32,000 bases of DNA from Candidatus Saccharimonadota bacterium. GTDB lineage: Bacteria > Patescibacteriota > Gracilibacteria > UBA1369 > 2-02-FULL-48-14. Location of the stretch: NCBI GenBank assembly GCA_041661045.1, contig JBAZVE010000001.1, forward strand, positions 120,001 through 152,000, read 5' to 3'. The translations under genes and the position numbers were made by a program. Of the stretch, positions 4,531 through 31,510 are shown in pieces; the first letter of the stretch is position 1; the number at the start of each line of letters is the position of its first letter. The notes beneath the pieces were generated by a model. The model was not told the origin of the DNA and did no database searches. It was given only the letters and a program-made list of their open reading frames with translations.

Positions 4531-4566
4531 GTGGGCTATGAGTTACTTAACTGTACAGGCTTGCCA

Positions 4567-4878: not shown

Positions 4879-4896
4879 AATTTAGTTGTTAGATAT

Positions 4897-5289: not shown

Positions 5290-5447
5290 AATGTGGTGAG
5301 TTAAAAACTATTAATGCAAATCATTGTCAAAAAAATCCTTTTCTTTTTCAGGTTGGAAGGCTGTCCCCTGATCTACATTGTTCGGATCGTGGATCACCAC
5401 AATAGTAATGATTTAAAAAATACCCGAGATTCCCTGCGAAAGTTTAT

Positions 5448-5747: not shown

Positions 5748-5756
5748 AATGTGGTC

Positions 5757-6296
5757 TTATTTTCTTGCTCTAAGTAATAATTTTACTTGAAGTAAATACA
5801 TTGGAATAAGTAACAACAATGAAATGGGAGATAACACTACTGTTACAAAAGAGAAGCCAAATATCAGTTCGACCCAGCCCGTTTTTTTCGTCAACCCCCC
5901 CATGGGATTTTTTAATTGGATTAAACTATAACCATGTAAAATGGTAAGCAAACCATATGTTATTCCAAAAGCTATATAAGCAGACGGATACTCATCGAGT
6001 TTTGAGGGATATGTGCTAATTTTTGGTAGATATACAAGAAGATCGTATGAAATATTAACCAAGATCAATAAAAAAGAGGAAACAGCGGTAACTTTACTAT
6101 TTTGTATTTGCCCCAAATAAATGAAGCCAGACAAAAACAGAGCATAACTAACGATTGATAAGAAAATCAGGGGGCCTAAGTTGAACTCAGGGAAATATGA
6201 ACCACCCTTGGCTTCTACTAGAAGTGTTAAAGGCACGCTTGAGATTAGTGATACTAACCCCGAGAAAGCAGCTAATTTAAAAAGATTTTTCTTCAT
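5757..6296 (-). CDS. Polytopic membrane protein; candidate immunity partner of the orphan RHS tip
   Basis: 179-aa ORF starting 7 nt after the stop of the orphan cassette. Five to six hydrophobic segments. No family recognised. Confidence 0.55.
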   Translation of the reverse strand: MKKNLFKLAAFSGLVSLISSVPLTLLVEAKGGSYFPEFNLGPLIFLSIVSYALFLSGFIYLGQIQNSKVTAVSSFLLILVNISYDLLVYLPKISTYPSKLDEYPSAYIAFGITYGLLTILHGYSLIQLKNPMGGLTKKTGWVELIFGFSFVTVVLSPISLLLLIPMYLLQVKLLLRARK

Positions 6297-6303
6297 AGTG
6301 CAT

Positions 6304-7433: not shown

Positions 7434-8054
7434 TCACCATGAAAAAGAATTCTTAATGATTTTACCCAAAATATCCAACCAATTCAGCTCAGTGTCTGCA
7501 CCCACTTCGTAACAAGTACGAGCTTTCAAACAATCCTCTCCCGTGAGATCCATTTCAAACACCGCCCGATCAGTTTCAGGTATCTCTTCTAGAGATAAGT
7601 AATATTCCGCTTCACCACTTGTTATATCAAGCACAACAAACCTGGGGAGATCATTTTGGTCATCATACATTAGAATCTTTCCATTCGAAGTATCCACTCC
7701 TCCCCAGTAGCTTATATTTCCCTCTGCATCCGTTCCCGTACCCCTCTCAACATTTCCTTCTATGTATAGTTTATCTTCATGAAGTCTATACCAGTACAAG
7801 TATCGAACCAAATAATCATCATACTTAAAATCCATCAATTGGAGTTTCTCCATATCTGTGGGCCATCTCCAAACTTGGAACCTTCCATCACTAAAATGAA
7901 TATATTTATCTTGATCGTATATCTCATACTTTAAATTGGGATCTTTTTCAATGAAGATATAGGTTTCCAAGCAACCCCTAAAAAAGACTACTCCTAGAAG
8001 GACAAGGGCGATAATACCAACTGTCTTAGCCGTTTTTCTAGAAAGCTTATTCAT
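7434..8054 (-). CDS. N-terminally anchored 206-aa protein; candidate immunity protein of the main RHS tip
   Basis: ATG at 8054-8052 lies inside TATGAATAA, overlapping the RHS stop (8049-8047). Begins MNKLSRKTAKTVGIIALVLLGVVFFRGC. The longer 7434-8123 ORF would overlap the RHS gene by 77 nt. Confidence 0.65.
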   Translation of the reverse strand: MNKLSRKTAKTVGIIALVLLGVVFFRGCLETYIFIEKDPNLKYEIYDQDKYIHFSDGRFQVWRWPTDMEKLQLMDFKYDDYLVRYLYWYRLHEDKLYIEGNVERGTGTDAEGNISYWGGVDTSNGKILMYDDQNDLPRFVVLDITSGEAEYYLSLEEIPETDRAVFEMDLTGEDCLKARTCYEVGADTELNWLDILGKIIKNSFSW

Positions 8055-11000
8055 AGGTGTAATCAAAGTTAATGGATTCAGTAAATTCAGATATGAAGCC
8101 TGTGGTTTGTGCCGCAGCCGCACCAGTATTTAGTGCATCATATGTAGCCCCACCACTGTATTCAAATCCTGCATCGAAATGATACTTATCTGAAATGGAC
8201 ACATCTAAATCCCACGCACCATTTTCCAATTGGCTTCCCGTAACCTGCATCCCGGCTGTACCAATGGACATTTTCAAATCGGATGTTTCATTGAGACGCA
8301 GTCCCCTCTGCCCATCGGTACCTTCAATGGAAGTTTGCCCATTAAACTCTGCATTAGAAACAATTTCACCAACCTTGGATTGAAACTCATCCGTCCCCTT
8401 AATTGAATCAATCACATTCCCCCATTCAGACTGATTCCCTTCATTGATGCTCACGCTTCCGGGGTTCAGTTCAAGGGAGTGGGATAAGAGACTTGATGTG
8501 ATTGGGTTTGAAAACTGAAGACCCCATGCCAGTGTTAAACCTGCCGTATAGATTTCCCGCACACCTGGCACAAAAAATGTTGCCAGGTAGGTAGTTGTAG
8601 ATAACTCTCCCGTTGGATCTGTAATATTTACCGGATTATTCCTGCTGTAACTGTAGAAGTTCAAACTCTGCGGATCTGTGAGAATTTGGAAGATGCGGTC
8701 ATCCAGCTGGGCCGGGTCCTGGCTGGAGAAACGGCCTATGGCGCTGTCATACCACCGGGCTTCGAAATAGTAGAGGCCAAGGTCTTCATCGAGTTCTTTG
8801 TCGGTGAAGGAGTGGTCGGCGGGGGCAGGGCCGGAGCCGTCGTCCAGGGAGCTATCGAGGAGCTCGGAGCCGTAGGGATAGTAATCGTAAAGCTGGGTGA
8901 CGAAGCCTTCTTCGTTGGTGGTGAGGGCGGTGCCTCCCAAGTGGTCCTGGTGGTAATAAGTGAGGGCAGCATCTCCCACAGGAGTTTCCGGAGGGATTTT
9001 AAGTGCGGCCACTCTTTGGCTTCCCGCAAAGAGGTAATAGAGCTCCGTTCCATCGGAAGCGGGTTCGGAGCCGCTGCCATCCGCCTTGCCACGGAGTTCT
9101 CCGTAGCGGCCGAGGTAATAGTCCACGGTTCCCCTGGCAGAGTCCACCGTCTTCCAGCGGGTACCAGTGGCATCGTAACTGAAGGATTTACTTCCACTGC
9201 TGCTGAGCTGATTCTTTCTATCCCAGCTGTAGGTGTGAGCGGCATTGCCGGTGAGGTTTCCCTTGCTGTCGTAGGTGTATGCTATGCCATCCACAGAAGT
9301 CACGGCGTGGGGATTGGCGCCGCTGTGAGTGCCGGAAGAAGAACCGGTGCCCTCATAAAGCAGGCTGCCAATGTCGCTCTTGTACACCATGTTTCCAAGG
9401 CTGTCATACTCATAAGTCTCACTGTAGTCTCCTCCGCTTAGGCCGGTGGTCTCTGCGGAGAGCAGGCGATTCAAGTCATCGTAGGCATAGGAAATGGTTT
9501 TGGCCGTGGGGCTTGTGCTCGTGTCCAGAATCTCCAAAATGTTCCCGACATTGTCGTAGCTGTAGGAAAGATCCTGAATTTCCGTCCAGGAAGTGCTGGT
9601 GAAGAGAGGATCATAAATGCCCGTGGTGCTTTTGCCTGTGAGGCGATATGCCTGAGCGGGGTCGTAGACATTGGTGGTCACGGTGCCGTTCCCGTAAGTG
9701 GTGCTTGCCGTTTGGGAAGAGGGAGAATAGTCCATGTCGGAAACGATGTCTCGTAAAGTAGCGCCTGTCCCTTCGGTTACTTTTTCAAGAAGACCGGCTG
9801 TGTTGTATTCGTAATTTACGGTTGCTGCAAAAGAGGGATACGCAATCTTTTTCAGACGGCTGAGGACATCGTATTCATATTGAAAAATATACGGGATGGT
9901 GTCGAGCTTTCTTGTTTCTTTTGCAAGGTTCCCGAGGCTGTCGTATTTATCATTGATCACCGAGAAATTTGTCATCAAGATTTTGTGGATTTTGCCTACC
10001 CCATTGATCGCAGTATCGTAGACAAAGGAAACATCTTTGGCAGAAGTTCCGGCATCCCAATCTTCAAAAACCATCCGATTGAGCGGATCGTAGCCCCATG
10101 TGAGCGACTGGCCCGCGGGGTCCACTTGGGAGACTAGATTCCCATTTTTATCGTAGGTGTAAGTCCATTCTCCAAAATCCCCTTCGGCCGGATCATGGAG
10201 ATCTTCTTGCAGGGTTTTGCGCCCCAAAGAATCGTAGCCGAAGTTTCTTAAGTTGCCCTGGCTATCGGTAAGAGTGAGGAGCAGGCCACGGTCATCATAA
10301 TCGTAAGTCGTTGTGTAAGTATCTATTCCATTCTTCTCTCGTACGGCACTCAAAGCTCCGGCGGCGTTATAGAGATAGGTTTTGCTGTTTCCATTCCCAT
10401 CCGTGACCTCTTCCATCCATGGGGAATAGTCATGTGTTTCCGTAGAGACGGGGGTCACCACGGTGAGGGGCCGACTGAGTGCATCGTAAGACATTTCTGT
10501 GCTGTACGCAGAGGCGTCTCTACCAAATATGCTGCTTGAAGTTTCGTAAGGAAAACTTTGGCTGGCAAGGTTTCCCCGTTCGTCGTACCAAAAGTCTACG
10601 GTCGTGTAGACCCCGCCCTCTGCTGAAGTATTGCTTTGGATGGCCCGTCCGAGGCCGTCAAAATAACTTACGGTTTCCATGGAAATGCCATCCACCGTGC
10701 TTTCCGTGGAGACGGAGCTTGGGAAGGAGTCGTCATCGTAGCTGCTTGTAGACACCAGCACCGAAGTCCCAAAGGTGGGATGCGGAATGGAGCTTGTTAA
10801 CACTCGCCCAAAGCCGTCGTAAGTGTTTGAGCGCGTAAAGCCATTTGCGTCCACGGAGCTGAGGAGTTGTCCGGTAGCTGCTTCGTATACGGTACTCGTT
10901 GTTTGTGAAAGGGCATTCGTTGTGCTTGCTGGGTAAAGATTGTTTGAATCATAGTTCATGTCCAGCGCGTTTCCCTTGGCATCCACTACTCGCTCAACGA

Positions 11001-13821
11001 GTCCATAAGCATTGACTGTGTAGGTGGAGCCAAACCATTGATTCCCTTCACTGAGCCAAGATTTTTCACTCGTAAGATTCCCCGTGGAAACATTCCCGAG
11101 CGGGAGGCCGTCGTAGGTGCGACGGCTTTTAGCGATTGCGGAGCCGCTTGCATCTTTCAAGATCTCTTCTGAGATTTTGTTGCGAATTAGCCCGGAGCTG
11201 TCCGCTGCGTACGCATAGGATAGTACGGTTTTTTCGTGCGCATGAGGAATATCCACAAATCCTCCGCTGCTGTCCGCCGCCACTTCACCGAAGTTTGTAA
11301 CTTTAAATATATTTCCGTCCGCATCGTATTGATAAGTTGTAGCTTTGTCCTTGTGAGCGCTGCCACCGAAGTCCATGGAAACACTGGCGGTTTTGTACAC
11401 AAAATCATTTTCATAGCCAAGATCCAAGGTTTCCCACGAGTCCCAGACTCTTTGGAAAAGATTGCCGGACTCATCATAAACTTCCGTTTTATAGGCGCGG
11501 CCGATGAGTGGAAACTCTTCTTGATGGTAATAAGAAATGGTTTCCTTTCCCTCCTCACTGCGCGACACCGTTTCGAAGCCGGCGAACTGACGGTTCATTT
11601 CATCTTCATACAAATATTTTCCACCGGAGTAGTCGTAGGTGATGGTGCTTTCTTCCCCAAGGCCATCCGAAGTGGTGACACTGGAGACCAAGTTCATCAC
11701 AAAGGGCATGGCGGGGTTATCGAAAGAGGTGGAGGGCGCATAGGAAACTGTGGTTTCCGCCCCTTTGGAGTGATGAATGGTTTCGAGCAGTTCTGGAGTG
11801 GCGTTGTTGAGATACATTCTTTTAGTGCTGCCCCCATGGGACTCAGAAAAAACCACATCCGCAAAGTTATCCCCATCCACATCAAAAATCTGAACGCCTT
11901 TTGGGGTTCTATAACCTTCTGCAAAACTCACGGGGACCGTATAAGCACTGCCTTCGTCCCATCCCGTCCCATCTCCCTTATTAATATATACGGCATTCTC
12001 AATGCTGGAATCTGCCGAGTAAACAATGTCCGCTAAGCCATCTCCATTGACATCCACCATTTCTGCAACATCCATCATGATATCTCCGCTATCCCAGAAA
12101 TAGATTGGGATGCTATAACTACTTTCTTCAGTCCACCCCGTTCCATCGCCACGATTGAGATAAACAGATTGGTAGGGACTCCCTTGATACCTTGATTCTA
12201 TAATATCCACCAAGCCATCTCCATTAATGTCTGCCAGTTTTACACCCTCGTCATCCTCTCCTTCAGAATTAAAAATAACTGGTATGGATATCTCGCTCAC
12301 TTCTTCCCATGTTTCCATTTCTGGATTGAAGAGGTAGATATTCTTTGAAATACCACCGTGACTCAAAGACTGAACAAAGTCAGGGAAAGAGTCTCCATTG
12401 ATGTCCATAACACGAATCCCCTCATCGGCCATATAACCACTATTGAACCTTAGTGGAATCGAGTAAGTGGTGTCTTCAACCCAAGAGGAAGACGCCTCGT
12501 CAAAGATGTAGCCTACCCGAACATCGCTAGAGGATTCCATGGAAGCATAAACGATATCGTTGAATCCATCTCCGTTCAAATCACTCATACGCGTACCCCT
12601 CATATAATTTCCTCCTGTTCCCCAAAAAGAGACAGGAATTGAATAGCTTGTATCTTCGGTCCAGCCTGTTCCATCGCCGTTATTCACATAGACCTCTCGG
12701 TAAGTTCTTCCACTATCGTAGTAGGAATTGAGAAGATCCATAAATCCATCCCCATTGACATCACTGATGTCCACACCTTTATCTTCATTTCCTCCCTCCA
12801 CATAAAAATACACCGGGATCTCGTAGCCGCTTACTTCTTCCCAGCCTTTTTCGCTCTCGGAATATTCAAAACTTGTAGGGTGGAGCGTGCTTACTTCACC
12901 AGTCGTGCTTTGAGCGGATTCCGTGACAGAAGAGAGTAAGGATTGAACGGTGTCGTCCGGGGTGGAGTAATCGAGACTGTATTTTCGAGTCCATACCCCA
13001 TCAACAAATGCGGTGATCTCACTGACTCGATAATCGGTTTGAACTTCAAAGCCGGTATTGTAAAAAGAAGAAACATCTTCTCGGCTCTCCAAAGTGAATT
13101 CAATGGCAAAAGATCCATCGGTGGATCCATGTCCGGTATAATGGATGCTTTCTGGATAAATTTGCCCATTCTCTTCAAAGTATTCGTATCGTACAAAGTT
13201 ATCATTGGAGTCTCGCACTTCCTCAAGCATCCACTTGTAGACGCGGCTTGCATCTGCCGGGTCCTCTTGCCTACTTTCAGCGGCTGCCCCAAAACTATAA
13301 ACGGTTCCGGACTTATCTGTAACAGACCAAGAGTTGTCCGAATTGAATGAGTAATTTAGAAAAGAGCCATCCTCGACTTTACTGCTGTACTCCCCGTAAG
13401 GACTTCCACTTATGGGAACAAGCTCTCCACTGAGTGAAGAACTAAAATTGTTTTCGTCGTACATGGTATTTACACCGGTTTTGTTGAGTCGCGTGATTGC
13501 AGGGATACCCAGTGACCAACCGGATCCATAAAAACTATCCCAGCCCATGCCTTGGCTGTTGTAGTTTAGGCTGAGAGAGGGCTGCAAGCCACTGCGCCCC
13601 GCAGGCAGAGTGAGGGGAAGAGAATAAGTGAAAGCTCCACTAAAAGAGCTGTCTTGCGCACCTTGGTCCAATCGAACCCGACTGTTATTGATTTCGTAAG
13701 TCTGATCATAAAACCCTTCGTTGTTATTTGTAGCATCTGCAAAGCTTCTAGGCGCGAAACTTGTGAATGCAAAAAAACTCAGCAGAAGGGTGGATAGGGC
13801 TCTCACTTTTTGGCTGAGCAT
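8047..13821 (-). CDS. Secreted SpvB / FG-GAP / RHS-repeat polymorphic toxin (TcB-TcC-like fusion), 1,924 aa
   Basis: Signal peptide MLSQKVRALSTLLLSFFAFTSFAPRSFA. SpvB-like FTYSLPLTLPAGRSGLQPSLSLNYNSQG..GWSLGIPAITR. Six DxNGDGxxD FG-GAP/VCBS repeats (aa ~350-660). Many YD repeats. RHS core end ...YYFEARWYDSAIGRFSSQDP...NNPVNITDPTGE. Confidence 0.95.
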   Translation of the reverse strand: MLSQKVRALSTLLLSFFAFTSFAPRSFADATNNNEGFYDQTYEINNSRVRLDQGAQDSSFSGAFTYSLPLTLPAGRSGLQPSLSLNYNSQGMGWDSFYGSGWSLGIPAITRLNKTGVNTMYDENNFSSSLSGELVPISGSPYGEYSSKVEDGSFLNYSFNSDNSWSVTDKSGTVYSFGAAAESRQEDPADASRVYKWMLEEVRDSNDNFVRYEYFEENGQIYPESIHYTGHGSTDGSFAIEFTLESREDVSSFYNTGFEVQTDYRVSEITAFVDGVWTRKYSLDYSTPDDTVQSLLSSVTESAQSTTGEVSTLHPTSFEYSESEKGWEEVSGYEIPVYFYVEGGNEDKGVDISDVNGDGFMDLLNSYYDSGRTYREVYVNNGDGTGWTEDTSYSIPVSFWGTGGNYMRGTRMSDLNGDGFNDIVYASMESSSDVRVGYIFDEASSSWVEDTTYSIPLRFNSGYMADEGIRVMDINGDSFPDFVQSLSHGGISKNIYLFNPEMETWEEVSEISIPVIFNSEGEDDEGVKLADINGDGLVDIIESRYQGSPYQSVYLNRGDGTGWTEESSYSIPIYFWDSGDIMMDVAEMVDVNGDGLADIVYSADSSIENAVYINKGDGTGWDEGSAYTVPVSFAEGYRTPKGVQIFDVDGDNFADVVFSESHGGSTKRMYLNNATPELLETIHHSKGAETTVSYAPSTSFDNPAMPFVMNLVSSVTTSDGLGEESTITYDYSGGKYLYEDEMNRQFAGFETVSRSEEGKETISYYHQEEFPLIGRAYKTEVYDESGNLFQRVWDSWETLDLGYENDFVYKTASVSMDFGGSAHKDKATTYQYDADGNIFKVTNFGEVAADSSGGFVDIPHAHEKTVLSYAYAADSSGLIRNKISEEILKDASGSAIAKSRRTYDGLPLGNVSTGNLTSEKSWLSEGNQWFGSTYTVNAYGLVERVVDAKGNALDMNYDSNNLYPASTTNALSQTTSTVYEAATGQLLSSVDANGFTRSNTYDGFGRVLTSSIPHPTFGTSVLVSTSSYDDDSFPSSVSTESTVDGISMETVSYFDGLGRAIQSNTSAEGGVYTTVDFWYDERGNLASQSFPYETSSSIFGRDASAYSTEMSYDALSRPLTVVTPVSTETHDYSPWMEEVTDGNGNSKTYLYNAAGALSAVREKNGIDTYTTTYDYDDRGLLLTLTDSQGNLRNFGYDSLGRKTLQEDLHDPAEGDFGEWTYTYDKNGNLVSQVDPAGQSLTWGYDPLNRMVFEDWDAGTSAKDVSFVYDTAINGVGKIHKILMTNFSVINDKYDSLGNLAKETRKLDTIPYIFQYEYDVLSRLKKIAYPSFAATVNYEYNTAGLLEKVTEGTGATLRDIVSDMDYSPSSQTASTTYGNGTVTTNVYDPAQAYRLTGKSTTGIYDPLFTSTSWTEIQDLSYSYDNVGNILEILDTSTSPTAKTISYAYDDLNRLLSAETTGLSGGDYSETYEYDSLGNMVYKSDIGSLLYEGTGSSSGTHSGANPHAVTSVDGIAYTYDSKGNLTGNAAHTYSWDRKNQLSSSGSKSFSYDATGTRWKTVDSARGTVDYYLGRYGELRGKADGSGSEPASDGTELYYLFAGSQRVAALKIPPETPVGDAALTYYHQDHLGGTALTTNEEGFVTQLYDYYPYGSELLDSSLDDGSGPAPADHSFTDKELDEDLGLYYFEARWYDSAIGRFSSQDPAQLDDRIFQILTDPQSLNFYSYSRNNPVNITDPTGELSTTTYLATFFVPGVREIYTAGLTLAWGLQFSNPITSSLLSHSLELNPGSVSINEGNQSEWGNVIDSIKGTDEFQSKVGEIVSNAEFNGQTSIEGTDGQRGLRLNETSDLKMSIGTAGMQVTGSQLENGAWDLDVSISDKYHFDAGFEYSGGATYDALNTGAAAAQTTGFISEFTESINFDYTYE
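8050..8604 (-). other. Variable C-terminal tip (185 aa) of the RHS protein, after DPTGE
   Basis: Sequence after DPTGE (LSTTTYLATFFVPGVREIYTAGL...INFDYTYE) has no similarity to the orphan tip beyond the first ~12 residues and matches no family I recognise. Confidence 0.7.
8605..9249 (-). repeat. RHS core-end block homologous to the orphan cassette at 6730-7398
   Basis: The protein alignment is continuous from AHTYSW to DPxGE. DNA stretches are near-identical, e.g. gtcataccaccgggcttcgaa(a/g)tagtagaggcc(a/g)aggtcttcatcgag. Confidence 0.85.
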
Positions 13822-23760: not shown

Positions 23761-23835
23761 GCGGGTGTCGTATAGTGGCTATTACCACAGCCTTCCAAGC
23801 TGTTGAGAGGGGTTCGATTCCCCTCACCCGCTCCA
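23761..23835 (+). tRNA. tRNA-Gly (anticodon UCC), CCA encoded
   Basis: Acceptor GCGGGTG/CACCCGC, anticodon stem ACAGC/GCTGT with loop CTTCCAA, T arm AGGGG-TTCGATT-CCCCT, discriminator T, CCA. 75 nt. Confidence 0.9.
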
Positions 23836-23838
23836 TTA

Positions 23839-23871
23839 AAAAACGGTGGCCCAAGGTGGCCAGCGGTTTTT
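23839..23871 (+). terminator. Imperfect GC stem-loop with a T-run after the tRNA (A-tract upstream, so possibly bidirectional)
   Basis: aaaaacggTGGCCcaaggtGGCCAgcggttttt: TGGCC/GGCCA stem with a 6-nt loop, extended by CG/CG and A:T pairs. Confidence 0.45.
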
Positions 23872-24000
23872 AACCGTAGTTGAAGGAGGGAAAGAGAACC
23901 CGTAGGGTTCGATACTCCCTAGGAGTGAGTGTCGCGGAAATCTGTGCGCACGCACACTTTTTGAATGGCGGATGGCTCTCTTAAGCCGAAATTTTGACCA

Positions 24001-24024
24001 AAATCTGTGCCCGGGCACAGATTT
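24001..24024. repeat. 24-nt perfect palindrome AAATCTGTGCCCGGGCACAGATTT; its half-site also occurs at 23938-23947
   Basis: The palindrome is self-complementary over all 24 nt. aaatctgtgc recurs as a direct copy 63 nt upstream. Confidence 0.8.
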
Positions 24025-24062
24025 CCATGACCGAGCGACGACGGGAGAGTGAGCGAAGCGAT

Positions 24063-24081
24063 ATTCCCCTCACCCGCTCCA
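24063..24081 (+). repeat. Direct duplicate of the tRNA-Gly 3' end (att-like core)
   Basis: attcccctcacccgctcca is identical to 23817-23835 (end of T loop, 3' T stem, 3' acceptor strand, CCA). Confidence 0.85.
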
Positions 24082-24130: not shown

Positions 24131-25357
24131 TTAAGCGTCCATAAAATGGATCATGCCTTGGATGCCATTTGAATATACTTTTAGCCGTATTTCTTCATAG
24201 GGGCGTTGGATGGATCTCCCTTCTTCTATGATACTGGTTAGAGTTATTGCCTCTTTCTCTCCTCGAGGTGGCTTCCGAAAACCCATCTTCACTAAACTCA
24301 CGGGTGCTCTTTTTACCCACCTAAGATCCCCATGTGCAAGGATGGAAGTTTGATATGAAAGATAGGCACCTATGTTTCTAGGTTGCACCCACAGTGGTAA
24401 TGACTCTCTATTGTGGAATGTATTGAGCGCATAGGCGACCTGAGTTTCATTTTCACGTAATTGTAGGAATTCACGAATCGTTTCTTCTGAATTTCTGGTT
24501 GAAATATCAGGCGTTAGATCCGCTCGGTGCATCACTTCGGTTCCTTCAGGCCCTGTTAGTCCAAATGCGTCGAAAGGTCGAGTCACATCAAAGTAATCGC
24601 CGTCTAAATCTCTTGTAAGTCCCTCTAGGTCAAAATCAGCCGCTGGCTCGTGGGGCTTGAATAAACGCGCTTGGTAGAATAATACTCCTCCATTTCTTTC
24701 TCCCCATTCCATTTGGAAAGAGTGACTGTAGGGCATCAAGCCACTTTCTTGCACCTTTCTATATAATGCTAAAACCTTTTTGGTCACAGGGCTTAAGTCT
24801 CTATCAGCTTCTGTAAAAGTGTATTCTGAGAATTCATGTGCGATCCTAAAAACTCCTCTTTGGTGTGGATGCTCAATGATTGAACCCGATTGACCCTCAT
24901 TATGATCTTGGACGAGAATTCCTACCTGTCCATCAAAGGGTTTTCCCGTTTCATACTCCACATAGGCTGCCACATCTTCACTCGTGGAGTCGGCACGTAC
25001 CCTTTCAATGGCTGCGAGCACTGCATCCCTTCCGCGGACTTTTGCTTCACTTGGAATCACATCCACCATCCCAAATACATCCAAGGGGTGACAGGCGCGT
25101 ACTATTTTCTGTCGACTGAAGTCTATTCTTTCTAAAATTCGGACAGGGTCTTCGCCTGGAGCAAGGTAAACCGTGCCCGAAGGTAAATGTTCGCGAAGAT
25201 TTGCTTGAGTGTCCCGCAAAAATGCATGCGAGCCAGCTTTACTACCGCCCTTTTCCATTAAATATCTTCGAGCGTCTGCATTCTCCCAACGGATGCTTTC
25301 TGAACTCATTGCACTCGGAGTTTTGTAATAAGAATGAATCTTACACGAACTGCTCAT
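24131..25357 (-). CDS. PPDK_N/PEP-utilising-family ATP-grasp-like protein with an unassigned C-terminal half (no phospho-His swivel domain)
   Basis: GGSKAGSHAFL (cf. GGKxxxL), VGILVQDHNEGQSGSIIEHP (cf. vvVQxMvxxxxSGVxFTxxP), FQMEWGERNGGVLFYQARLFKP (cf. DIEWaxxxgxlyilQaRP). ATG at 25357 chosen; the track's TTG at 25366 and an ATG at 25309 are alternatives. Confidence 0.6.
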   Translation of the reverse strand: MSSSCKIHSYYKTPSAMSSESIRWENADARRYLMEKGGSKAGSHAFLRDTQANLREHLPSGTVYLAPGEDPVRILERIDFSRQKIVRACHPLDVFGMVDVIPSEAKVRGRDAVLAAIERVRADSTSEDVAAYVEYETGKPFDGQVGILVQDHNEGQSGSIIEHPHQRGVFRIAHEFSEYTFTEADRDLSPVTKKVLALYRKVQESGLMPYSHSFQMEWGERNGGVLFYQARLFKPHEPAADFDLEGLTRDLDGDYFDVTRPFDAFGLTGPEGTEVMHRADLTPDISTRNSEETIREFLQLRENETQVAYALNTFHNRESLPLWVQPRNIGAYLSYQTSILAHGDLRWVKRAPVSLVKMGFRKPPRGEKEAITLTSIIEEGRSIQRPYEEIRLKVYSNGIQGMIHFMDA

Positions 25358-25398
25358 GAGGGGCAATTTGATACATCAAAAACCCTGCTCCTTCAAAA

Positions 25399-25415
25399 AG
25401 GTTCTAATAGTGTCT
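25399..25415 (-). promoter_or_regulatory. Island upstream motif, degenerate copy (M1)
   Basis: Plus strand aggttctaatagtgtct matches the first 17 nt of the 31-nt motif with one mismatch. It sits upstream of a putative TTGAAG-N17-TATCAA promoter of the 24131-25357 gene. Confidence 0.5.
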
Positions 25416-25452
25416 CACAGTAAGGCTACTCTCTTTTGATGTTGTTCAGCCA

Positions 25453-25851
25453 CTAAGCACTGGCCCATCCCGACATCAATGCTAGAAATTGTGGTGCTGC
25501 TGGAGCTGATTTCGTTCCATTCATTACGGAGATAGAGCTTGGGCCTAAGACGACTGTAAAAGCTGGTTGATTTGGAGACTCACCTCTTGTAGGGTCATAG
25601 AAAAACATCTGTACCCTGCCTGGATCACCATCGGCAGATTTAACATCAAAGCTACTGGCTCCTAATTGAGTAGGTAGCCTTCTACCGTCCCTAACTGTTA
25701 TGGGTTCACCTGGGCGGCTTGCTTCACCTTGGGACCCTATGATGCCCTCGAGTTTTTGCATAAGGGTCGCACGGCCTGTATCCATTGGTGTACCTGTTGG
25801 GATGTTGGCACCACCTCCGACATAGCGACCTCCTTCTCTGGGTGTATCCAT
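25453..25851 (-). CDS. Hypothetical 132-aa soluble Gly/Pro/Ser-rich protein
   Basis: ORF with its own promoter (TTTGCA-N17-TATAAT). No hydrophobic segment and no recognisable family. Confidence 0.55.
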   Translation of the reverse strand: MDTPREGGRYVGGGANIPTGTPMDTGRATLMQKLEGIIGSQGEASRPGEPITVRDGRRLPTQLGASSFDVKSADGDPGRVQMFFYDPTRGESPNQPAFTVVLGPSSISVMNGTKSAPAAPQFLALMSGWASA

Positions 25852-25880
25852 GGGTGATATGGTTAAAATTTAGTATCGTA

Positions 25881-25909
25881 ATTATAGCATAAATTTTTTA
25901 TTATGCAAA
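25881..25909 (-). promoter_or_regulatory. Sigma70-like promoter of the 132-aa gene
   Basis: Minus strand TTTGCA (25909-25904), 17-nt spacer, TATAAT (25886-25881). ATG 31 nt downstream of the -10. Confidence 0.55.
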
Positions 25910-25938
25910 TTTGCCTTGCGGATGCTGCTCCCGCAGGT

Positions 25939-25969
25939 AGGTTCTAATAGCGTCTATAGTGCAGCTCCA
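25939..25969 (-). promoter_or_regulatory. Island upstream motif copy M2 (31 nt)
   Basis: Plus strand aggttctaatagcgtctatagtgcagctcca differs at one position from 30008-30038. Confidence 0.6.
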
Positions 25970-26030
25970 TCCTCGTCGCAGACGAGTCGTTCCCATTAAG
26001 GTGCCCCGAATGGGGTGATTTTTATTTTAT

Positions 26031-26771
26031 CTATGCATCTTGCATTACCCTCCTCTCTATTTGATCTAAGAGTATATCTGGCAAATCTCTTCGTTCACTC
26101 ACTTCTATCACCTCTTGTCCAGGCTGGAGTAGAAAAGTTTGTTTCGGCTTGAAGTTAACACCAACTATATTTGCTACAGCCAAGTCTTGCCTGTCCCGTT
26201 CCATTGATCTAGTCGCTTTTGCTAGGAGCTGCACCACGCTTGACTCTTCTGTAAGAAGCTTAAATCCTACCAGAAAAATTCCTTCACGAGTGGTTTTTAC
26301 TTGGGAAATAATTTTAGCAAGGGCAACTAAGTGTAAATCTAATCCATTTCCATCTGAGGCAATTTTCCCATCTACTTTTTGGGGTCCGTAGTCAGAAGCA
26401 GCCATCGCTAGAATGGCGATGTCCATATCTGGGCGAGCAACGCGCTCCAACAGACTCCTCTGATAATGATCAAAATCTGTAACAGGACTCAGGGTTAACC
26501 GGTCAGAAATGGCACGGTAGTTTTCAATTGCAGATCGTATTCTTTGCAATTCAGTTTCAATATCAACTTCTGGGTCTGCCATCAATTCTCTTCCAAATGG
26601 AAGCCTTGCATTTTCTGCATGGACATAATCAACTTTATGCCCCCTTAAAAGAGCTACTTCCGCGATAGCTGCACCCGTAGTTCCTTTGGAACGATTGGTT
26701 AGAATTCTGACGTCATCAACGGGTACCGCAGTGCCGCCACTCGAAATAACAAAATTTAGTGGTTTTCTCAT
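26031..26771 (-). CDS. CoaB/DFP-family ligase (phosphopantothenate--cysteine ligase-like), stand-alone
   Basis: FVISSGGTAVPVDDVRILTNRSKGTTGAAIAEVALLRGHKVDYV (cf. E. coli Dfp [26 protein letters not shown]). AMAASDYGPQKVDGKIAS..LDLHLVALAKII (cf. AAVADYR..KIKK..L.L..NPDI). FLVGFKLLTE, DLAVANIV. Confidence 0.78.
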   Translation of the reverse strand: MRKPLNFVISSGGTAVPVDDVRILTNRSKGTTGAAIAEVALLRGHKVDYVHAENARLPFGRELMADPEVDIETELQRIRSAIENYRAISDRLTLSPVTDFDHYQRSLLERVARPDMDIAILAMAASDYGPQKVDGKIASDGNGLDLHLVALAKIISQVKTTREGIFLVGFKLLTEESSVVQLLAKATRSMERDRQDLAVANIVGVNFKPKQTFLLQPGQEVIEVSERRDLPDILLDQIERRVMQDA

Positions 26772-27619
26772 GTAACAATTGCTAATGATTGTAAGGCCTG
26801 TCCTACTGATCCCTTCCCCAAGTTGTCAAATGCGACATGGACGGTAAACCGTGATCCTTCTTGCACCCAATACACATGTACTTCATCGGTCCCCACTACT
26901 TCGCCCCATTGAGGAGTCTTGTTACGGTGCACCACTCGCCCTGAAGTGAAAGGGTGCTCTGAATAAGGAACCTCTTCGGAGGTTTTTAAGTCGCCATGAA
27001 TAGCCATGGTCGTACCACGGTAGCGTCTAGCCAACTGAGGGACCATTCTTAGTTCTAGCGCTTGTACGCCCAGATTGCTTTTGATTTCAGGAATATGAGG
27101 ATGATTCAAGCCTGTATTTGGGACAATAAGGTCTTGTTCTGGATTCTCTTCAAAAAAAGTAACCCATTTTTTCCCACCCGTTGAGGCTCCACCAATGGCT
27201 TCAATATGAACCGCACTCCTAGTGTCGATTTGATTTCTTATAGGCCACAAGGCCAAGGAAGCGGCTGTAGCAAAACATCCCGGCCCGACAAGTCGAGTTG
27301 TTCCTTTTATAAGTTGTGGATTCAATTCTGGCAATGCATACTCCCATCCTTCTTTGCCTCGATGGATTCCAGAACAATCATAAATAACAAGACCGGGGTT
27401 GATGGCAGCTATTCCTTCTACTACCTCCAGACTATGCCTACGCGGAATGGCAGAGACTACTGCAGTGCAGTCCATCAAGGCTTTTACCTTTGCCTCGTAC
27501 GAAGCCGTTCTCCAATCTAGATCAGGGGACCCCAGTTCAAAATCTTCGTGTGAGTCAAGCCTCCTCACAAACTCCGCCCCAATTGGCCCTGTTTTTCCTA
27601 AAAGGAGTACTTTTTTCAT
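26768..27619 (-). CDS. ArgC/LysY-family N-acyl-gamma-glutamyl-phosphate reductase-like dehydrogenase (short form, 283 aa)
   Basis: MKKVLLLGKTGPIGAEF (NAD(P) fold). Active-site LVGPGCFATAASLALWPI (cf. ArgC VPGCYPTAAQLALKPL). IGGASTGGKK, NHPHIPEI, AFDNLGKGSVGQALQSL (cf. DNLLKGAAAQAVQ). ATGA overlap with the CoaB-like gene. Confidence 0.8.
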   Translation of the reverse strand: MKKVLLLGKTGPIGAEFVRRLDSHEDFELGSPDLDWRTASYEAKVKALMDCTAVVSAIPRRHSLEVVEGIAAINPGLVIYDCSGIHRGKEGWEYALPELNPQLIKGTTRLVGPGCFATAASLALWPIRNQIDTRSAVHIEAIGGASTGGKKWVTFFEENPEQDLIVPNTGLNHPHIPEIKSNLGVQALELRMVPQLARRYRGTTMAIHGDLKTSEEVPYSEHPFTSGRVVHRNKTPQWGEVVGTDEVHVYWVQEGSRFTVHVAFDNLGKGSVGQALQSLAIVT

Positions 27620-27620
27620 G

Positions 27621-28181
27621 TTATTTAATTAATTCGCTGGGCTCCCAGCTAAACATATCTCTAGTTACTCTACCCATTCCTTCTGGAGCCGACTCTCGTG
27701 GAAAATATCTATACTCTGTATGCTCATTAGATAGTTGGATCGCATTTGGATCACCCTCTACGTCAAGCAGATAGCCATGAACGACATAAAGTCGACCCCT
27801 CTTAACCTGTACCGCCCGCCTAACGGCAATTTTCCTTGCTACTACCGTGTTGAGAGCGGTTTCTTCAAAGGTTTCTCTCCTCACCGTTACATCTAATGGC
27901 TCTTTCCCAACGATATTCCCAGCTATTCTCAGAAACTCACGTCTCCCGCCTGGGAAACACCATTCGTTTGGGTATGATCTATCAAAGCTAGGTCTTTTCA
28001 AAAGCAACTTTTCCCCTAATGGATTCTGAATAATGCCTATTGCAACTTCAATAAGCTCCGGCTTGGCTCCACTTTCACACATGGCCACCCACAGTTCTCT
28101 TACCCTTTTCCATTCTGTTAAAGGGTCTTCAATTTCCTCTGCATGTGCCCACAATATGTTTTCCTTGGTCTCAATGGCCAT
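27621..28181 (-). CDS. Nudix hydrolase
   Basis: Nudix box GNIVGKEPLDVTVRRETFEETAL (Gx5Ex7REUxEExGU with G to A at the penultimate position). 1-nt gap to the ArgC-like start. Confidence 0.8.
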   Translation of the reverse strand: MAIETKENILWAHAEEIEDPLTEWKRVRELWVAMCESGAKPELIEVAIGIIQNPLGEKLLLKRPSFDRSYPNEWCFPGGRREFLRIAGNIVGKEPLDVTVRRETFEETALNTVVARKIAVRRAVQVKRGRLYVVHGYLLDVEGDPNAIQLSNEHTEYRYFPRESAPEGMGRVTRDMFSWEPSELIK

Positions 28182-28205: not shown

Positions 28206-28237
28206 ATTTTGACACTTAATTTAGATCCTGTCAATCC
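28206..28237 (-). promoter_or_regulatory. Sigma70-like promoter upstream of the Nudix gene, paralogous to the promoter at 29959-29990
   Basis: Minus strand GGATTGACAggATCTAAAT...; TTGACA (28234-28229), 17-nt spacer, CAAAAT (28211-28206). Confidence 0.5.
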
Positions 28238-28279: not shown

Positions 28280-29938
28280 TTACATTAGACTACCTGAATA
28301 CCAAGAATACAGAGCAGGTGGAGAACCTTCTTTCCAATGTCTTACCCGAGAGGAACCGTCTGAACTAAAAATAATATCCATTTCATTGAGGCCAGTTTCT
28401 GCATCTTTTCCCAACTGTAAGACTCCATGTTCTTCATCAAATACAATAAATCCACTTTGAATTGCACTTGAAACTCCTGTAAGAAAATTCGCCCTACGCG
28501 CGTTTGCGTTTGGAAATTTTTCTTGTAGTTTAGTGGTTAAAAACCTTACTGGATCTACATCCCCAACTTGCAATGCAATACTTCGCCTCACTAGCATTAA
28601 AGCCTCTCGTAATTCATTGTTGGTTTCTATTTCATTGGCATCCCAATTCTCTATTCTTCTACCACGAACGGATTCTGCATAGTTAGGGTCGAATATCATT
28701 CGAGCATAACGCTTTTGCAGATAATCAGGCAGATCGCTTGGTATAATGGGTTCGAGTTCTGAGGCTGGACGCCAATTTGGCAGACTTATAGCTAAACCAT
28801 TAGCTATATCTTGTCCGCGTGATGACCAGAGTTCAGAATAGTAGGATTCTAATTGAGTTCCTACGCTATCAAGTTCTTGGAGTATGGAAGGATATTCCCT
28901 GAAGTACCACCTGGCTCTGGCTATGTCTTGTCTTGCATAGACTACACTTCCAAAAATAAGATGATTCTTCCCTCTTGATATCTGGTCTTCTGTATATTGC
29001 TTGATCCTCTCCAGTAAAACTGTCCTGATAGCATCAGCGATGGATTGAGCCCTAGCTTCAGATTTGTCTTGCGTTTCACACAATTCAAGCGAAGCAAGAT
29101 TGACTGCTAAATCATGAACTGCTGAGCCAGTCGTTGAAAGTACCGGGTAACTAAGGGGTTGTTTAGTAATGTTACGGAATCTCTCGAGACTGGCCTCGAA
29201 TCGTGGGTTCAATAAATTGCTTGCGGTGGCCACCACTTGATCCTTGAGGTTTTTAGTACTAGCGAAATCTAGAAAAGCTTGAAGTGCCTCAACTTCCGCT
29301 AGCAATGCCCCATCCATATGGGAATATCTATGGAATGTGTCTTTGATACAATGCTTTACAATCTCAGGATTCGCTAAATTATCAGCTGTCAGCAACTCGT
29401 TGAGCCAATAGTTGTTATCTATGTCCGGAAAAAATTCGCTCATGTTCTCTCTTTCAACCCAGGCTAAATAAGGTGCTCCTTGAAAGCAGTGTGGAATATG
29501 TTCCGCTAACCTAGCAAAAGCCTGCTGCGCCACTTTGGGTGAACATCCGCACTCCTCGGCCATCCACCACAATATTTCGGAAAAATTTTCGGGCGATTTT
29601 ATTCGATTGACCCCAGCTAGTTTTTCATCATCCTCTCCTGCCCATTCAGATATTTCAGGATAGTACTTAGCTAAAATAATTCTGTTTCTCAAGCTCAATC
29701 CTCTTATAGCTTCAGGTGTCAGATATTCGTGGAGTGCCATAAAACAGCTAGCCTTTTCTTCCCATGTGAGACCCAGTTCATAAATATCAAAAAAGACCTT
29801 TGTGAATTCCCCAGGGTTATTTACTAAATCCTGGCCTCCCTTCTCTTTTGGATCACCAAACCCATAGGGAGTACTCCAGGTCGATTCCTCTGCTCCACGG
29901 AGCGGGGATGCAGTATGTTCAGATTGAGACTTACTCAT
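28280..29938 (-). CDS. Hypothetical 552-aa alpha-helical protein, paralog of the 30107-31510 product
   Basis: Shared blocks with the 467-aa protein: NPGEFTKVFF/DPGNFLTYFA, AKYYPEIS/AKYFPNLN, SEFFPDIDNNYW..NPEIVKHCI/REYFPDFDLQAW..HPEVVERIA. No family recognised. Confidence 0.7.
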   Translation of the reverse strand: MSKSQSEHTASPLRGAEESTWSTPYGFGDPKEKGGQDLVNNPGEFTKVFFDIYELGLTWEEKASCFMALHEYLTPEAIRGLSLRNRIILAKYYPEISEWAGEDDEKLAGVNRIKSPENFSEILWWMAEECGCSPKVAQQAFARLAEHIPHCFQGAPYLAWVERENMSEFFPDIDNNYWLNELLTADNLANPEIVKHCIKDTFHRYSHMDGALLAEVEALQAFLDFASTKNLKDQVVATASNLLNPRFEASLERFRNITKQPLSYPVLSTTGSAVHDLAVNLASLELCETQDKSEARAQSIADAIRTVLLERIKQYTEDQISRGKNHLIFGSVVYARQDIARARWYFREYPSILQELDSVGTQLESYYSELWSSRGQDIANGLAISLPNWRPASELEPIIPSDLPDYLQKRYARMIFDPNYAESVRGRRIENWDANEIETNNELREALMLVRRSIALQVGDVDPVRFLTTKLQEKFPNANARRANFLTGVSSAIQSGFIVFDEEHGVLQLGKDAETGLNEMDIIFSSDGSSRVRHWKEGSPPALYSWYSGSLM

Positions 29939-30007: not shown

Positions 30008-30038
30008 AGGTTCTAATAGCGTCTATGGTGCAGCTCCA
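30008..30038 (-). promoter_or_regulatory. Island upstream motif copy M3 (31 nt)
   Basis: Plus strand aggttctaatagcgtctatggtgcagctcca lies just upstream of the -35 of the 552-aa gene promoter. Confidence 0.6.
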
Positions 30039-30106: not shown

Positions 30107-31510
30107 TCAGATGTCCCCCTTTATAGCTATACTCGGGAAAAGATCGCGAAGACTTGCGATGCGGGGATCTGGGTTAACTGTCGATCTGGCAGCATTACGG
30201 AAGAGACCTTGTACAGCGCCTATAACCCGTGGATCGTCGGTTACGGCCTCAGTAAGATATACCAGCTCACGGTCACTCCAATCCCTACCCCCGTTCAGCC
30301 AAGACAAAAAATTCTCAACACGATTAAAATTCAAAACAATGGGTGGCTTCAAATCTGGATCCCTATGAATAGCCACTTCCCTATCCAGCAAATAATCTCG
30401 GACTATTGGATCAGCCAAGAACATATCTGCCCATTGCTTGAGTTTTTCTGAATGACCTACTCGACTTCTATCTTTATCTCTTTCCCGTCCACTCATCTTT
30501 TGGAATTTGGCTCTCATCTCCGCTTCAATTCGGTCTATAATGGAAGCGATAGCGTCTTTTGTTTGTAAGGAGATTTCTCTTGATCCCTGTTCATCCACTA
30601 ACTGTTTAAGAAGAAGGGTTATTCCAACGAAAAAGGAGATAGTTGGTGTCGAGTGCAGAGCTTTAATATCCTGGTCGCGAACTGATCTAGACACTCCCTC
30701 AATTTCACCATTAAATCGCTTCATAAGTGCTTCTCGGGTCATAGCCCTAACAACTTCTTCCTTTTCATAGCGCTCAGCTAGAGTGAAAAAACTTTCCAAC
30801 TCAGCCAGCATTTCTTGTTCAGTAGGTGTAATCCTATACGGCCTACCCTGAATAGCATGAGCTATCCGTTCAACAACTTCAGGATGACTTTCTATGTCCT
30901 CCATGAGTCTGGGCTCCCAGGCTTGAAGGTCAAAATCTGGAAAATATTCTCGTATTTTACGCCGGTCAGTAAAGACCAGATCAGGCCTATCCCCCAAGAT
31001 TTCAGGTGTCTTTCCCTCTAATTTTTTCATGCATGCCTCTCCCACTTGTAGATTGCACCGGGACATAAGAATAGATCCGAGCAACTCATCATATGAAAGT
31101 GAGGGGTCACCTGTAGAAAGTCTTTCCAACTCACTGGTAAAGTAGCTTGGGAAGACAGCCTCCTCCTCCCCACTGATACTATTCAAGTTAGGGAAGTACT
31201 TGGCCAGTTCCCTTCTTATTGCATAAGAAGCCCTTTGAACAGACTCCACCAAAAGTTTACTGCGTTGACGATCACTTAGAAGTGCGTCCAAGGCATCAGC
31301 AATAATCTTTCTGTAATCCTCATCCTCTAAAAGGCGTGTATACTCCTGAGTGCGTGCAAAATAGGTAAGAAAGTTTCCGGGGTCTTTTTTAATCTCTTCG
31401 CAATGCCACAATGCTAATTCGCACTCGCCTTTTTTCCCTGTATCTGGTGCTTGATCTTTTAACATTTTTGGATTGGAGTAAATGGTCAATGCAGAGTCGG
31501 GACCTGCCAT
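30107..31510 (-). CDS. Hypothetical 467-aa alpha-helical protein, paralog of the 28280-29938 product
   Basis: Long ORF with TTGACA (31552-31547) upstream. Colinear similarity blocks to the 552-aa protein. No family recognised. Confidence 0.7.
   Translation of the reverse strand: MAGPDSALTIYSNPKMLKDQAPDTGKKGECELALWHCEEIKKDPGNFLTYFARTQEYTRLLEDEDYRKIIADALDALLSDRQRSKLLVESVQRASYAIRRELAKYFPNLNSISGEEEAVFPSYFTSELERLSTGDPSLSYDELLGSILMSRCNLQVGEACMKKLEGKTPEILGDRPDLVFTDRRKIREYFPDFDLQAWEPRLMEDIESHPEVVERIAHAIQGRPYRITPTEQEMLAELESFFTLAERYEKEEVVRAMTREALMKRFNGEIEGVSRSVRDQDIKALHSTPTISFFVGITLLLKQLVDEQGSREISLQTKDAIASIIDRIEAEMRAKFQKMSGRERDKDRSRVGHSEKLKQWADMFLADPIVRDYLLDREVAIHRDPDLKPPIVLNFNRVENFLSWLNGGRDWSDRELVYLTEAVTDDPRVIGAVQGLFRNAARSTVNPDPRIASLRDLFPSIAIKGDI

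Follow-up and report, generated by a model that had tools for sequence, protein, structure and literature searches.

In a 32,000-nucleotide (nt) stretch of contig JBAZVE010000001.1 (assembly GCA_041661045.1, positions 120,001 to 152,000; hereafter the window, whose first letter is position 1), we analysed five genes at 24131-28181 that an initial annotation, made from the letters alone, had read as one out-of-context enzyme pathway. The results indicate that the real unit is a three-gene accessory operon, encoding a Nudix hydrolase, an ArgC-like reductase and a CoaB-like ligase (hereafter the trio), and not the five genes together. The trio is vertically inherited in a small sub-lineage of Gracilibacteria/Peribacteria, and it probably lies outside arginine biosynthesis and outside the standard CoaB-CoaC route. 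Based on the chemistry of the enzyme families we propose, with a probability of roughly 0.4, that it is a module coupling the activation of a carboxylate to its reduction or ligation. All five open reading frames (ORFs) are co-directional on the minus strand, as first described:

27621..28181, minus strand: Nudix hydrolase gene (186 amino acids (aa); Pfam NUDIX)
26768..27619, minus strand: ArgC-like NAD(P)H-dependent acyl-phosphate-type reductase gene (283 aa; Semialdhyde_dh and Semialdhyde_dhC_1)
26031..26771, minus strand: CoaB-like (DFP C-terminal domain) carboxylate-nucleotidyl ligase gene (246 aa; Pfam DFP)
25453..25851, minus strand: orf132, gene of a near-orphan small protein
24131..25309, minus strand: orf392, stand-alone ATP-grasp gene (392 aa)

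The trio occupies about 2.2 kb and encodes three predicted soluble proteins. A 1-nt gap separates the Nudix stop from the ArgC-like start (TAA-c-ATG at 27620), and the ArgC-like stop overlaps the CoaB-like ATG by an ATGA (26771-26768); both junctions were read directly in the sequence and are those given by the initial annotation. Since the source metagenome-assembled genome (MAG) is labelled Candidatus Gracilibacteria, we examined the genetic code: under code 25, TGA would encode glycine and the ATGA stop would be abolished. This code was rejected, as TGA terminates 6 of the 27 ORFs with short read-through extensions, and ORFs of 966 and 1924 aa running uninterrupted in the window also count against it. 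TGA is a genuine stop in the source organism and the ATGA overlap is therefore real.

The trio recurs together in four lineages of uncultured Gracilibacteria/Peribacteria, at the window itself (L001), L002, L011, L012 (Peribacteria; a lineage shared with L003 and L008) and L070, with protein identities of 56-73% across these loci. The Nudix gene lies upstream in the window, L002 and L011 (order Nudix-ArgC-CoaB) and downstream in L012 and L070 (order ArgC-CoaB-Nudix). The 4-nt overlap between the ArgC-like and CoaB-like genes is found in every lineage that has both genes intact (10004/10001 in L002, 10852/10849 in L011, 967/964 in L012 and 3535/3532 in L070). Because all three genes are kept through the change of order and the translational coupling is conserved, we consider them functionally linked. 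The initial annotation had treated the three genes as one translational unit, and would have given up its pathway if the genes were never co-localised in related genomes; the comparison of neighbourhoods finds the three co-localised and conserved together there.

Close relatives are few. A search of 5.8 billion clusters returned six for the CoaB-like protein (39-73% identity) and four for the ArgC-like protein (61-67%), the next matches being ordinary ArgC or CoaBC at about 30% identity. One other species alone among 185,579 GTDB species representatives has a close CoaB-like relative, and a scan of JGI metagenomes with a profile of the ArgC-like clade gave no clade member, its three matches (33%) being apparently ordinary ArgC. 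The divergence of the trio from L002 (57-73%) is like that of the flanking RNase J (71%), and one flank of the trio repeatedly carries TerC and EamA genes; we conclude from this divergence and synteny that the trio is chromosomal and has descended vertically. It adjoins slots of variable gene content. The upstream slot holds orf467 and orf552 in the window, a 420-aa gene without annotation in L070, an aldolase and three unannotated genes in L002 and Fic in L011, and downstream of the trio in L012 lie RhuM/Fic and then a DUF3182 gene.

Profile hidden Markov model (HMM) searches, which had been proposed as a check on the three enzymes, matched NUDIX, Semialdhyde_dh and DFP domains in Pfam. The ArgC-like protein matches Semialdhyde_dh (PF01118, E 5e-9) and Semialdhyde_dhC_1 (PF22698, E 8e-16) and falls below the NCBIfam equivalog cut-offs, with 119 bits against 233.6 for TIGR01850 and 80.6 against 229.85 for TIGR01851. 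Its catalytic Cys115, already recognised in the motif GPGCFATA, is invariant in the ArgC-like clade, together with NH173PH175 (NHPHIPE), GGASTGGKK, RG and DNLGKG, and the GxxGxxG motif is kept. It had been suggested that the protein might group with bona fide ArgC enzymes, which would have made it a housekeeping gene; in a neighbour-joining tree the clade instead forms a long branch beside short-form ArgC, with a mean identity of 26% to 33 other ArgC sequences that share 37% among themselves. A tyrosine conserved in 33/33 of these is replaced by Pro167 in the clade, and a second, present in 94% of them, is deleted. The two tyrosines presumably contact the substrate, and their loss suggests that the substrate pocket of the ArgC-like reductase may be altered. 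The closest relative outside the clade is a 303-aa protein at 3706-4617 of L071 (30% identity), in surroundings that look phage-like or island-like, with many small unannotated ORFs and with genes for an R2K-type ATP-grasp protein and a 2OG-Fe(II) oxygenase.

The CoaB-like protein matches Pfam DFP (PF04127, E 7e-29) and is likewise below the equivalog cut-offs, scoring 95 bits against 265 for NF005231, 86 against 217 for TIGR02114 and 74 against 220 for TIGR00521. Its best match in the PDB is 2gk4 (E 2.5e-33), deposited as a conserved hypothetical protein and followed by named PPCS enzymes. Four residues invariant in the CoaB-like clade, R22, N26, D127 and K136, map onto R207, N211, D281 and the KxKK loop, the active-site reference of mycobacterial CoaB (PMC7794376), and the protein has a K-I-x-S loop similar to the one in human PPCS and in 2gk4. 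The invariance of their catalytic motifs makes it likely that both the ArgC-like and the CoaB-like enzyme are active. No CoaC homologue was detected in the window, nor at any trio locus to a distance of 10 kb; by comparison, a CoaC homologue stands beside the CoaB match in 17 of 51 CoaB-related GTDB-representative loci.

The nearest outgroup of the CoaB-like clade (34-39% identity) belongs to Isosphaeraceae and other Planctomycetota, in which a sister clade of stand-alone proteins has 29-39% identity to the window protein (L013, L014, L016, L017, L018 and L026, around position 10000 in most). We looked there for an ArgC-like partner and found neither one nor a Nudix gene nearby; the conserved neighbour is instead a divergently oriented UxaC-like (glucuronate isomerase family) gene, which always adjoins, and in three loci an O-acyltransferase gene (Acyl_transf_3) adjoins as well. 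This Planctomycetota clade may represent a second non-CoA use of the DFP fold, perhaps on sugar acids. A further CoaB-like homologue, P0006, has tryptophan at family-invariant glycines, for example SWWT for SGGT. This substitution is expected when the product of a code-25 source is translated with a table in which TGA encodes tryptophan, and the CoaB-like family thus appears to extend into recoded Gracilibacteria.

The Nudix protein matches Pfam NUDIX (PF00293, E 1e-10). Its RExxEE catalytic helix is intact, with RE(T/V)(F/Y)EET conserved, and is preceded by a variable insertion of 9-15 residues between FPGGRR(D/E) and KEPL; the N-terminus is extended by about 40 aa, and this extension (EEIExPETxW) is conserved. 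Orthologues with 56-61% identity adjoin the ArgC-like/CoaB-like pair in L002, L011, L012 and L070. The stretch LLLKR(S/P)xxDRSxPxxWCFPGG was compared with the CoA-Nudix (NuCoA) signature, which we take to be LLTxR[SA]x3Rx3Gx3FPGG: the spacing, the LL, both arginines and FPGG fit, while the threonine and the glycine do not. The resemblance appears unspecific: the best PDB relative, a MutT-related protein (3grn, E 3e-8) with a similar stretch, matches better there, and NUDT7 matches in that stretch only (E 0.77).

Searches of the 32-kb window, and of related loci to a distance of 10 kb, found neither argB, argD nor argJ/E, none of the CoaC, CoaA, CoaD and CoaE genes occurs at any trio locus, and Pfam detects no AA_kinase, aminotransferase or peptidase gene in the cluster; the arginine and CoA partners that the initial annotation had missed next to the genes are absent from the whole window and from every related locus. 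A literature search found no paper that joins the three families, in line with the original statement that the combination is not a described system, and none that deals with a CoaB paralogue outside CoA synthesis or with the CoA metabolism of Peribacteria. The amino acids that Peribacteria reportedly make are Ala, Ser and Gly alone, and many cofactor pathways are reported missing (PMC4736985). Taken together, the low equivalog scores, the long ArgC-like branch, the lost tyrosines, the missing CoaC, the rarity of the trio and the metabolism of Peribacteria argue that these are probably not housekeeping enzymes.

CoaB-type enzymes convert a carboxylate to an acyl-nucleotide, and the cysteine of ArgC-type enzymes attacks acyl phosphates to give a thioester that is then reduced. 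In the module that we propose, the CoaB-like protein would turn the carboxylate of a small molecule into an acyl-nucleotide, either acyl-CMP or acyl-AMP, which in chemical terms is an anhydride of the acyl phosphate type; the ArgC-like protein would take the activated acyl group onto Cys115, and reduction by NAD(P)H would yield an aldehyde. The CoaB-like ligase would in this way replace the usual kinase of a carboxylate-to-aldehyde pair. Less probably, the ArgC-like reductase would make an amine or aldehyde partner to which the ligase would join the activated acid through an amide bond. As a guess, the Nudix hydrolase might release the substrate from a nucleotide-linked precursor or remove the nucleotide by-product. 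A more specific version is a two-protein carboxylate reductase, in which an acyl-cytidylate or acyl-adenylate formed on a PPCS fold would be taken directly by a thiol reductase of the GAPDH fold, with neither kinase nor carrier, and the Nudix protein would feed or proofread the reaction; we hold this version to be rather unlikely.

Several points weigh against the proposed coupling. ArgC-family enzymes are known to act on acyl phosphates made by amino-acid kinases, and we know of none that acts on acyl-nucleotides. In L009 the gene after a clade ArgC-like gene, at the end of the contig, encodes a PlsC-type acyltransferase and not a CoaB-like protein. Asn26 of the CoaB-like protein is kept, a residue that according to E. 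coli N210 mutant work reportedly serves the amide-forming second half-reaction; its retention suggests that the protein still ligates an amine rather than handing its intermediate off. Finally, with the monofunctional CoaB-sized 2gk4 as its closest solved relative, the CoaB-like protein could still have ordinary PPCS activity.

The main rival is a CoA-related function, which we judge unlikely. The CoaB-like protein would then be a genuine monofunctional phosphopantothenate-cysteine (or -amine) ligase in a salvage route or shortcut to 4'-phosphopantetheine, used by an organism without the full pathway, the Nudix protein a CoA, dephospho-CoA or acyl-CoA diphosphatase, and the ArgC-like protein would supply or process one of the moieties. 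All CoaB catalytic residues are conserved, the closest structure (2gk4) is a monofunctional CoaB-sized DFP protein ahead of the named PPCS enzymes, the K-I-x-S loop is like that of human PPCS and 2gk4, and the spacing of the Nudix stretch fits the CoA-Nudix signature, with NUDT7 matching in this stretch only, at E 0.77. On the other hand, CoaC, CoaA, CoaD and CoaE are missing at all trio loci, the Nudix stretch matches the MutT-related 3grn better and the signature is therefore unspecific, no known CoA step uses an acyl-phosphate reductase, and a core cofactor step should be far commoner among Gracilibacteria than the trio is.

The initial annotation had extended the pathway to all five genes, making orf132 a possible carrier and orf392 a further enzyme. 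The small protein was searched in Pfam, NCBIfam, PHROG and PADLOC and matches nothing in them; among 1.84 billion representatives it has a single homologue (127 aa, 43% identity), and it is absent from every related locus. Its AlphaFold2 model has a predicted local distance difference test (pLDDT) score of 76, and a Foldseek search with this model, which had been recommended at the outset, gives no significant fold match in the PDB (best E 0.26), LysW-type and acyl carrier protein (ACP)-type carriers included. The sequence has neither a Cys4 motif nor an acidic tail, and ends in ...MSGWASA. The carrier role proposed for orf132 thus finds no counterpart in the predicted fold.

The upstream regions of orf132, orf392 and orf552 share a box; its copies and the promoter sites of the region are as follows:

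30008..30038, minus strand: third copy of the box, at full length, preceding the orf552 promoter and outside the segment first annotated
29987-29959, minus strand: orf552 promoter TTGACA-17-TATACT
28206..28234, minus strand: promoter-like site (TTGACA-17-CAAAAT with TG; 10/12 consensus), which precedes the Nudix start codon by about 25 nt
25939..25969, minus strand: full 31-nt box TGGAGCTGCACTATAGACGCTATTAGAACCT, directly upstream of the orf132 promoter
25909-25881, minus strand: orf132 promoter TTTGCA-17-TATAAT
25399..25417, minus strand: partial box TGAGACACTATTAGAACCT, upstream of orf392

The total of sites found by the consensus promoter scan in the region is not above chance, and the site before the Nudix gene is positional evidence only. 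The common upstream motif that had been noticed for orf132 and the ATP-grasp gene is real: CTATTAGAACCTnnnTGnnGGAGCAG occurs exactly twice, once upstream of each, against 0 expected. The 31-nt box, TGGAGCTGCACYATAGACGYTATTAGAACCT, immediately precedes the -35 element at both orf552 and orf132. In L004 a full box is found at about 136-166, upstream of the orf392 orthologue, and the copy before orf392 in the window is degraded; at the trio loci L002 and L011 the box is absent. Rfam was searched for a known RNA or riboswitch in the box and in the tRNA-proximal element described below, and it returned nothing beyond the tRNA. The box could be the operator or activator site of a small regulon, or the footprint of a recombination or duplication.

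Two direct copies of the box core, CTATTAGAACCT, bracket orf132. The left copy holds the 5' half of the box and the right copy the promoter-side flank, and in L004 box and flank form one unit that precedes the orf392 orthologue. From this arrangement we infer that orf132 was inserted together with a promoter of its own, at a point between the box and the promoter of orf392. A local insertion is the probable origin of the gene, which does not belong to the conserved unit.

The two genes of the variable slot upstream of the trio, orf552 (28280-29938, minus strand) and orf467 (30107-31510, minus strand), are paralogues with 23% identity (E 1e-10). Neither has a significant match in Pfam, PHROG or PADLOC, and orf552 is negative in NCBIfam too; orf552 may be co-transcribed with the trio.

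The ATP-grasp gene starts at the ATG at 25309 and encodes 392 aa, in agreement with the gene calls, 37 homologues and the L004 orthologue, which corrects the 408 aa first given. The protein has no Pfam match even at E<=10 and no sequence-profile match in the PDB. At least 37 homologues (32-78% identity) are found, none with a Pfam domain, and of the two that are named by organism, one comes from a MAG of Gracilibacteria and the other from a MAG of Peregrinibacteria. The AlphaFold2 model (pLDDT 91) has as its top Foldseek matches 1kbl (PPDK) and 5hv3/5hv6 (the ATP domain of rifampin phosphotransferase), at E 3e-8 to 5e-8, further matches being 1ggo and 1dik (to E 1e-7) and then Ddl and LysX (rank 24). 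The PPDK-type matches cover 271-365 aligned columns with template modelling scores (TM-scores) of 0.34-0.43, nearly all of the protein aligning to the N-terminal region of PPDK. On inspection of the sequence, QME...YQAR is similar to the Mg-ATP motif of PPDK, DxE...QxR, and no swivel phosphohistidine or phosphoenolpyruvate (PEP)-utilizers domain is present in orf392 or its neighbours. The swivel-less PPDK_N-like assignment thus stands at the level of the predicted fold, while a PPDK_N HMM match was not obtained; all four family assignments of the initial annotation hold, and this was the least obvious of them.

The orf392 family is not tied to the trio. It occurs without it in L004, L005, L006, L063 and L065, in unrelated neighbourhoods, and a conserved neighbour common to these five loci was sought and not found; conversely, the trio occurs without orf392 in L002 and L012. 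The L004 orthologue (76% identity) adjoins the same tRNA-Gly, RNase H and thioredoxin genes, and because L004 shares this setting, the position of orf392 is ancestral and independent of the trio. A family of at least 37 members in unrelated settings without the trio speaks against the pathway membership first claimed for the ATP-grasp protein. We conclude that orf392 belongs to an unnamed, well-conserved ATP-grasp family of this bacterial group and is a neighbour of the trio only.

A different ATP-grasp protein does occur near the trio elsewhere. In the Peribacteria locus L012 a full-length DUF3182 protein (3590-4672, E 4e-49) is encoded two genes and 1.3 kb downstream of the trio and co-directionally with it. 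DUF3182 has the ATP-grasp fold (PMC4431377). Homology between orf392 and the L012 protein was tested and rejected (hhalign probability 0.1%). Pfam reportedly describes DUF3182 as restricted to Proteobacteria.

A pathway of all five genes, in which the ATP-grasp protein would form an acyl phosphate (possibly on the orf132 protein), the ArgC-like protein would reduce it, the CoaB-like protein would ligate and the Nudix protein would trim, is therefore to be weighed against these distributions, and we find it improbable. The confident ATP-grasp fold of the orf392 model and the box shared by orf132, orf392 and orf552 favour it, and the DUF3182 gene downstream of the trio in L012 keeps it alive. 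However, orf132 is nearly unique, with one homologue in 1.84 billion representatives, is absent from the other trio loci and has no carrier-like fold; the orf392 family has a wider distribution than the trio, with unrelated genes around it; in L002 a Pyr_redox_2 gene is found instead; DUF3182 and orf392 have no detectable homology; the box is missing from L002 and L011; and no AAK-type kinase is present.

More improbable still is the chance juxtaposition, in a compact genome, of a divergent housekeeping ArgC, a divergent CoaB and a house-cleaning Nudix enzyme. Canonical catalytic motifs would fit it, and so would the general knowledge that orthologues in Candidate Phyla Radiation (CPR) bacteria often fall below equivalog cut-offs. 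Against it stand the retention of the trio through rearrangement with ATGA coupling in four lineages, the loss of conserved ArgC tyrosines, the lack of pathway partner genes nearby, the rarity of the trio within the class and the fact that arginine synthesis is not reported for Peribacteria (PMC4736985).

An att-like tRNA scar had also been noted as the boundary of the five genes, and two features define the region concerned:

23761..23835, plus strand: tRNA-Gly (TCC), found by ARAGORN (Rfam tRNA, 59 bits)
24063..24081, minus strand: 19-nt exact duplicate of the tRNA-Gly 3' end, at the distal end of an insertion relative to L004

The repeat exists (0.01 such duplicates are expected by chance), but it is the outer end of an insertion and not a boundary of the genes. 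In an alignment, the window sequence from the orf392 stop to the repeat corresponds to the L004 sequence from the orf392 stop to the tRNA; we therefore recognise, at the 3' end of the tRNA, an insertion of 246 nt that comprises 227 nt and the repeat. The repeats bracket 227 nt without an ORF, and the insertion is missing in L004. The five genes lie outside it, and they are therefore not cargo of a repeat-bounded island.

Within the insertion (23836-24062) lies a non-coding element of about 100 nt, with a conserved core at about 23836-23940. By eye it is nearly identical to L004 40-135, where it stands upstream of the orf392 box, unlike the proteins of the two genomes, which are only 46-76% identical. 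The folding z of the element is about -3.3 for both strands, a hairpin resembling a bidirectional terminator closes it, and it abuts TGGAGC in both places. Rfam returned no match for the element, which may be a small mobile element or a structured RNA.

Other origins were tried and rejected. Tblastn of a phage collection gave canonical ArgC and CoaB(C)-type proteins only (24-29%), apparently in bacterial DNA, IMG/VR scans with ArgC-like and orf392 profiles were empty, and as to a defence system PADLOC returned a weak generic match of the Nudix protein alone (PDC-S07, E 4e-5). That the genes are cargo of an island, mobile or defensive, which integrated at tRNA-Gly is accordingly the least probable reading of all: the duplicated tRNA 3' end, the Fic, RhuM, transposase and AAA_21/RloB genes that accompany the trio in L011, L012 and L008, the PDC-S07 match and a GC content a few per cent lower beyond the tRNA are outweighed by repeats that bracket 227 nt only, with the genes outside, by the ancestral position of orf392 next to tRNA-Gly shared with L004, by the lack of an integrase, by TerC/EamA-trio synteny and RNase J-like divergence that indicate chromosomal backbone, by the lack of relatives on viral contigs or in phage records, and by ArgC-like and CoaB-like proteins without a PADLOC match.

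Elsewhere in the window, a 1924-aa protein (8047-13821, minus strand) carries SpvB, TcdB-mid, FG-GAP and RHS-repeat domains, which mark it as a Tc/RHS-type toxin. Short ORFs past the 3' end of its gene (7434-8123 and others) might be immunity or alternative-tip genes. At 4001-7000 the GC content drops to 0.34-0.38, against 0.45-0.52 in the flanks, over several small ORFs including those of a DUF2283 and a LysM protein; this segment may be of foreign origin.

To our knowledge, one reaction only has been demonstrated for the CoaB (DFP) fold, and ArgC-type reductases are known to us only downstream of amino-acid kinases. A coupled ArgC-like/CoaB-like pair outside the arginine and CoA context, with a reductase altered on its substrate side, would point to new enzymology, whose chemistry could be the reduction of acyl-nucleotides or the formation of a new amide-linked metabolite. 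It could serve as a metabolic shortcut in reduced, host-dependent CPR bacteria, whose acquisition of cofactors and nutrients is poorly understood. The two-protein carboxylate reductase, if true, would be the first non-CoA function of the DFP/CoaB fold and would bring a new substrate class to the ArgC family, in a host-dependent CPR lineage.

Among known systems, the tRNA-integrated genomic island shares with the locus a tRNA and a repeat of its 3' end, and differs in that no integrase is present here and the cargo genes are not bracketed. The N-terminal part of PPDK and the ATP domain of rifampin phosphotransferase have in common with orf392 the ATP-grasp fold, as judged from the predicted model; unlike them, orf392 has no HMM similarity and no swivel or substrate domain, and its family is confined to relatives of the lineage. 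The LysW/AmCP system uses a zinc-ribbon carrier with an acidic glutamate tail that orf132 does not match, its LysX, LysZ, LysJ/LysK set is not found with the trio, and orf392 resembles LysX as a generic ATP-grasp protein only.

Closer in kind are monofunctional CoaB/PPCS enzymes, with which the CoaB-like protein shares the DFP domain, a similar size, the R/N/D/K residues and the K-I-x-S loop. It is unlike them in its scores (86-95 bits against 217-265), in never standing beside CoaC and in being always overlapped by an ArgC-like gene. The kinase-reductase pairs ArgB/ArgC, LysZ/LysY, ProB/ProA and Ask/Asd follow the logic that we propose for the trio, namely activation as a mixed anhydride and then cysteine-dependent reduction by NAD(P)H to an aldehyde on a semialdehyde-dehydrogenase fold, and the trio reductase has the PGC, HxH-PE and DNLxKG motifs of ArgC. 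In contrast to these pairs, the trio has no amino-acid-kinase-fold gene, the partner being a CoaB-type nucleotidyl-transferring ligase; the reductase lacks conserved ArgC tyrosines and scores at half the family cut-off; and no ArgD/J or LysW/X/J/K genes accompany it.

Finally, carboxylic acid reductases (CAR) and Lys2-type enzymes offer an analogy at the level of the net reaction. Their folds are unrelated, an ANL adenylation domain and an SDR-type R domain as opposed to DFP and GAPDH-like folds, and the trio has no phosphopantetheinyl carrier. If the proposed mechanism is right, however, the net chemistry would be the same, an acyl-nucleotide being made at the expense of an NTP and reduced with NAD(P)H to an aldehyde.

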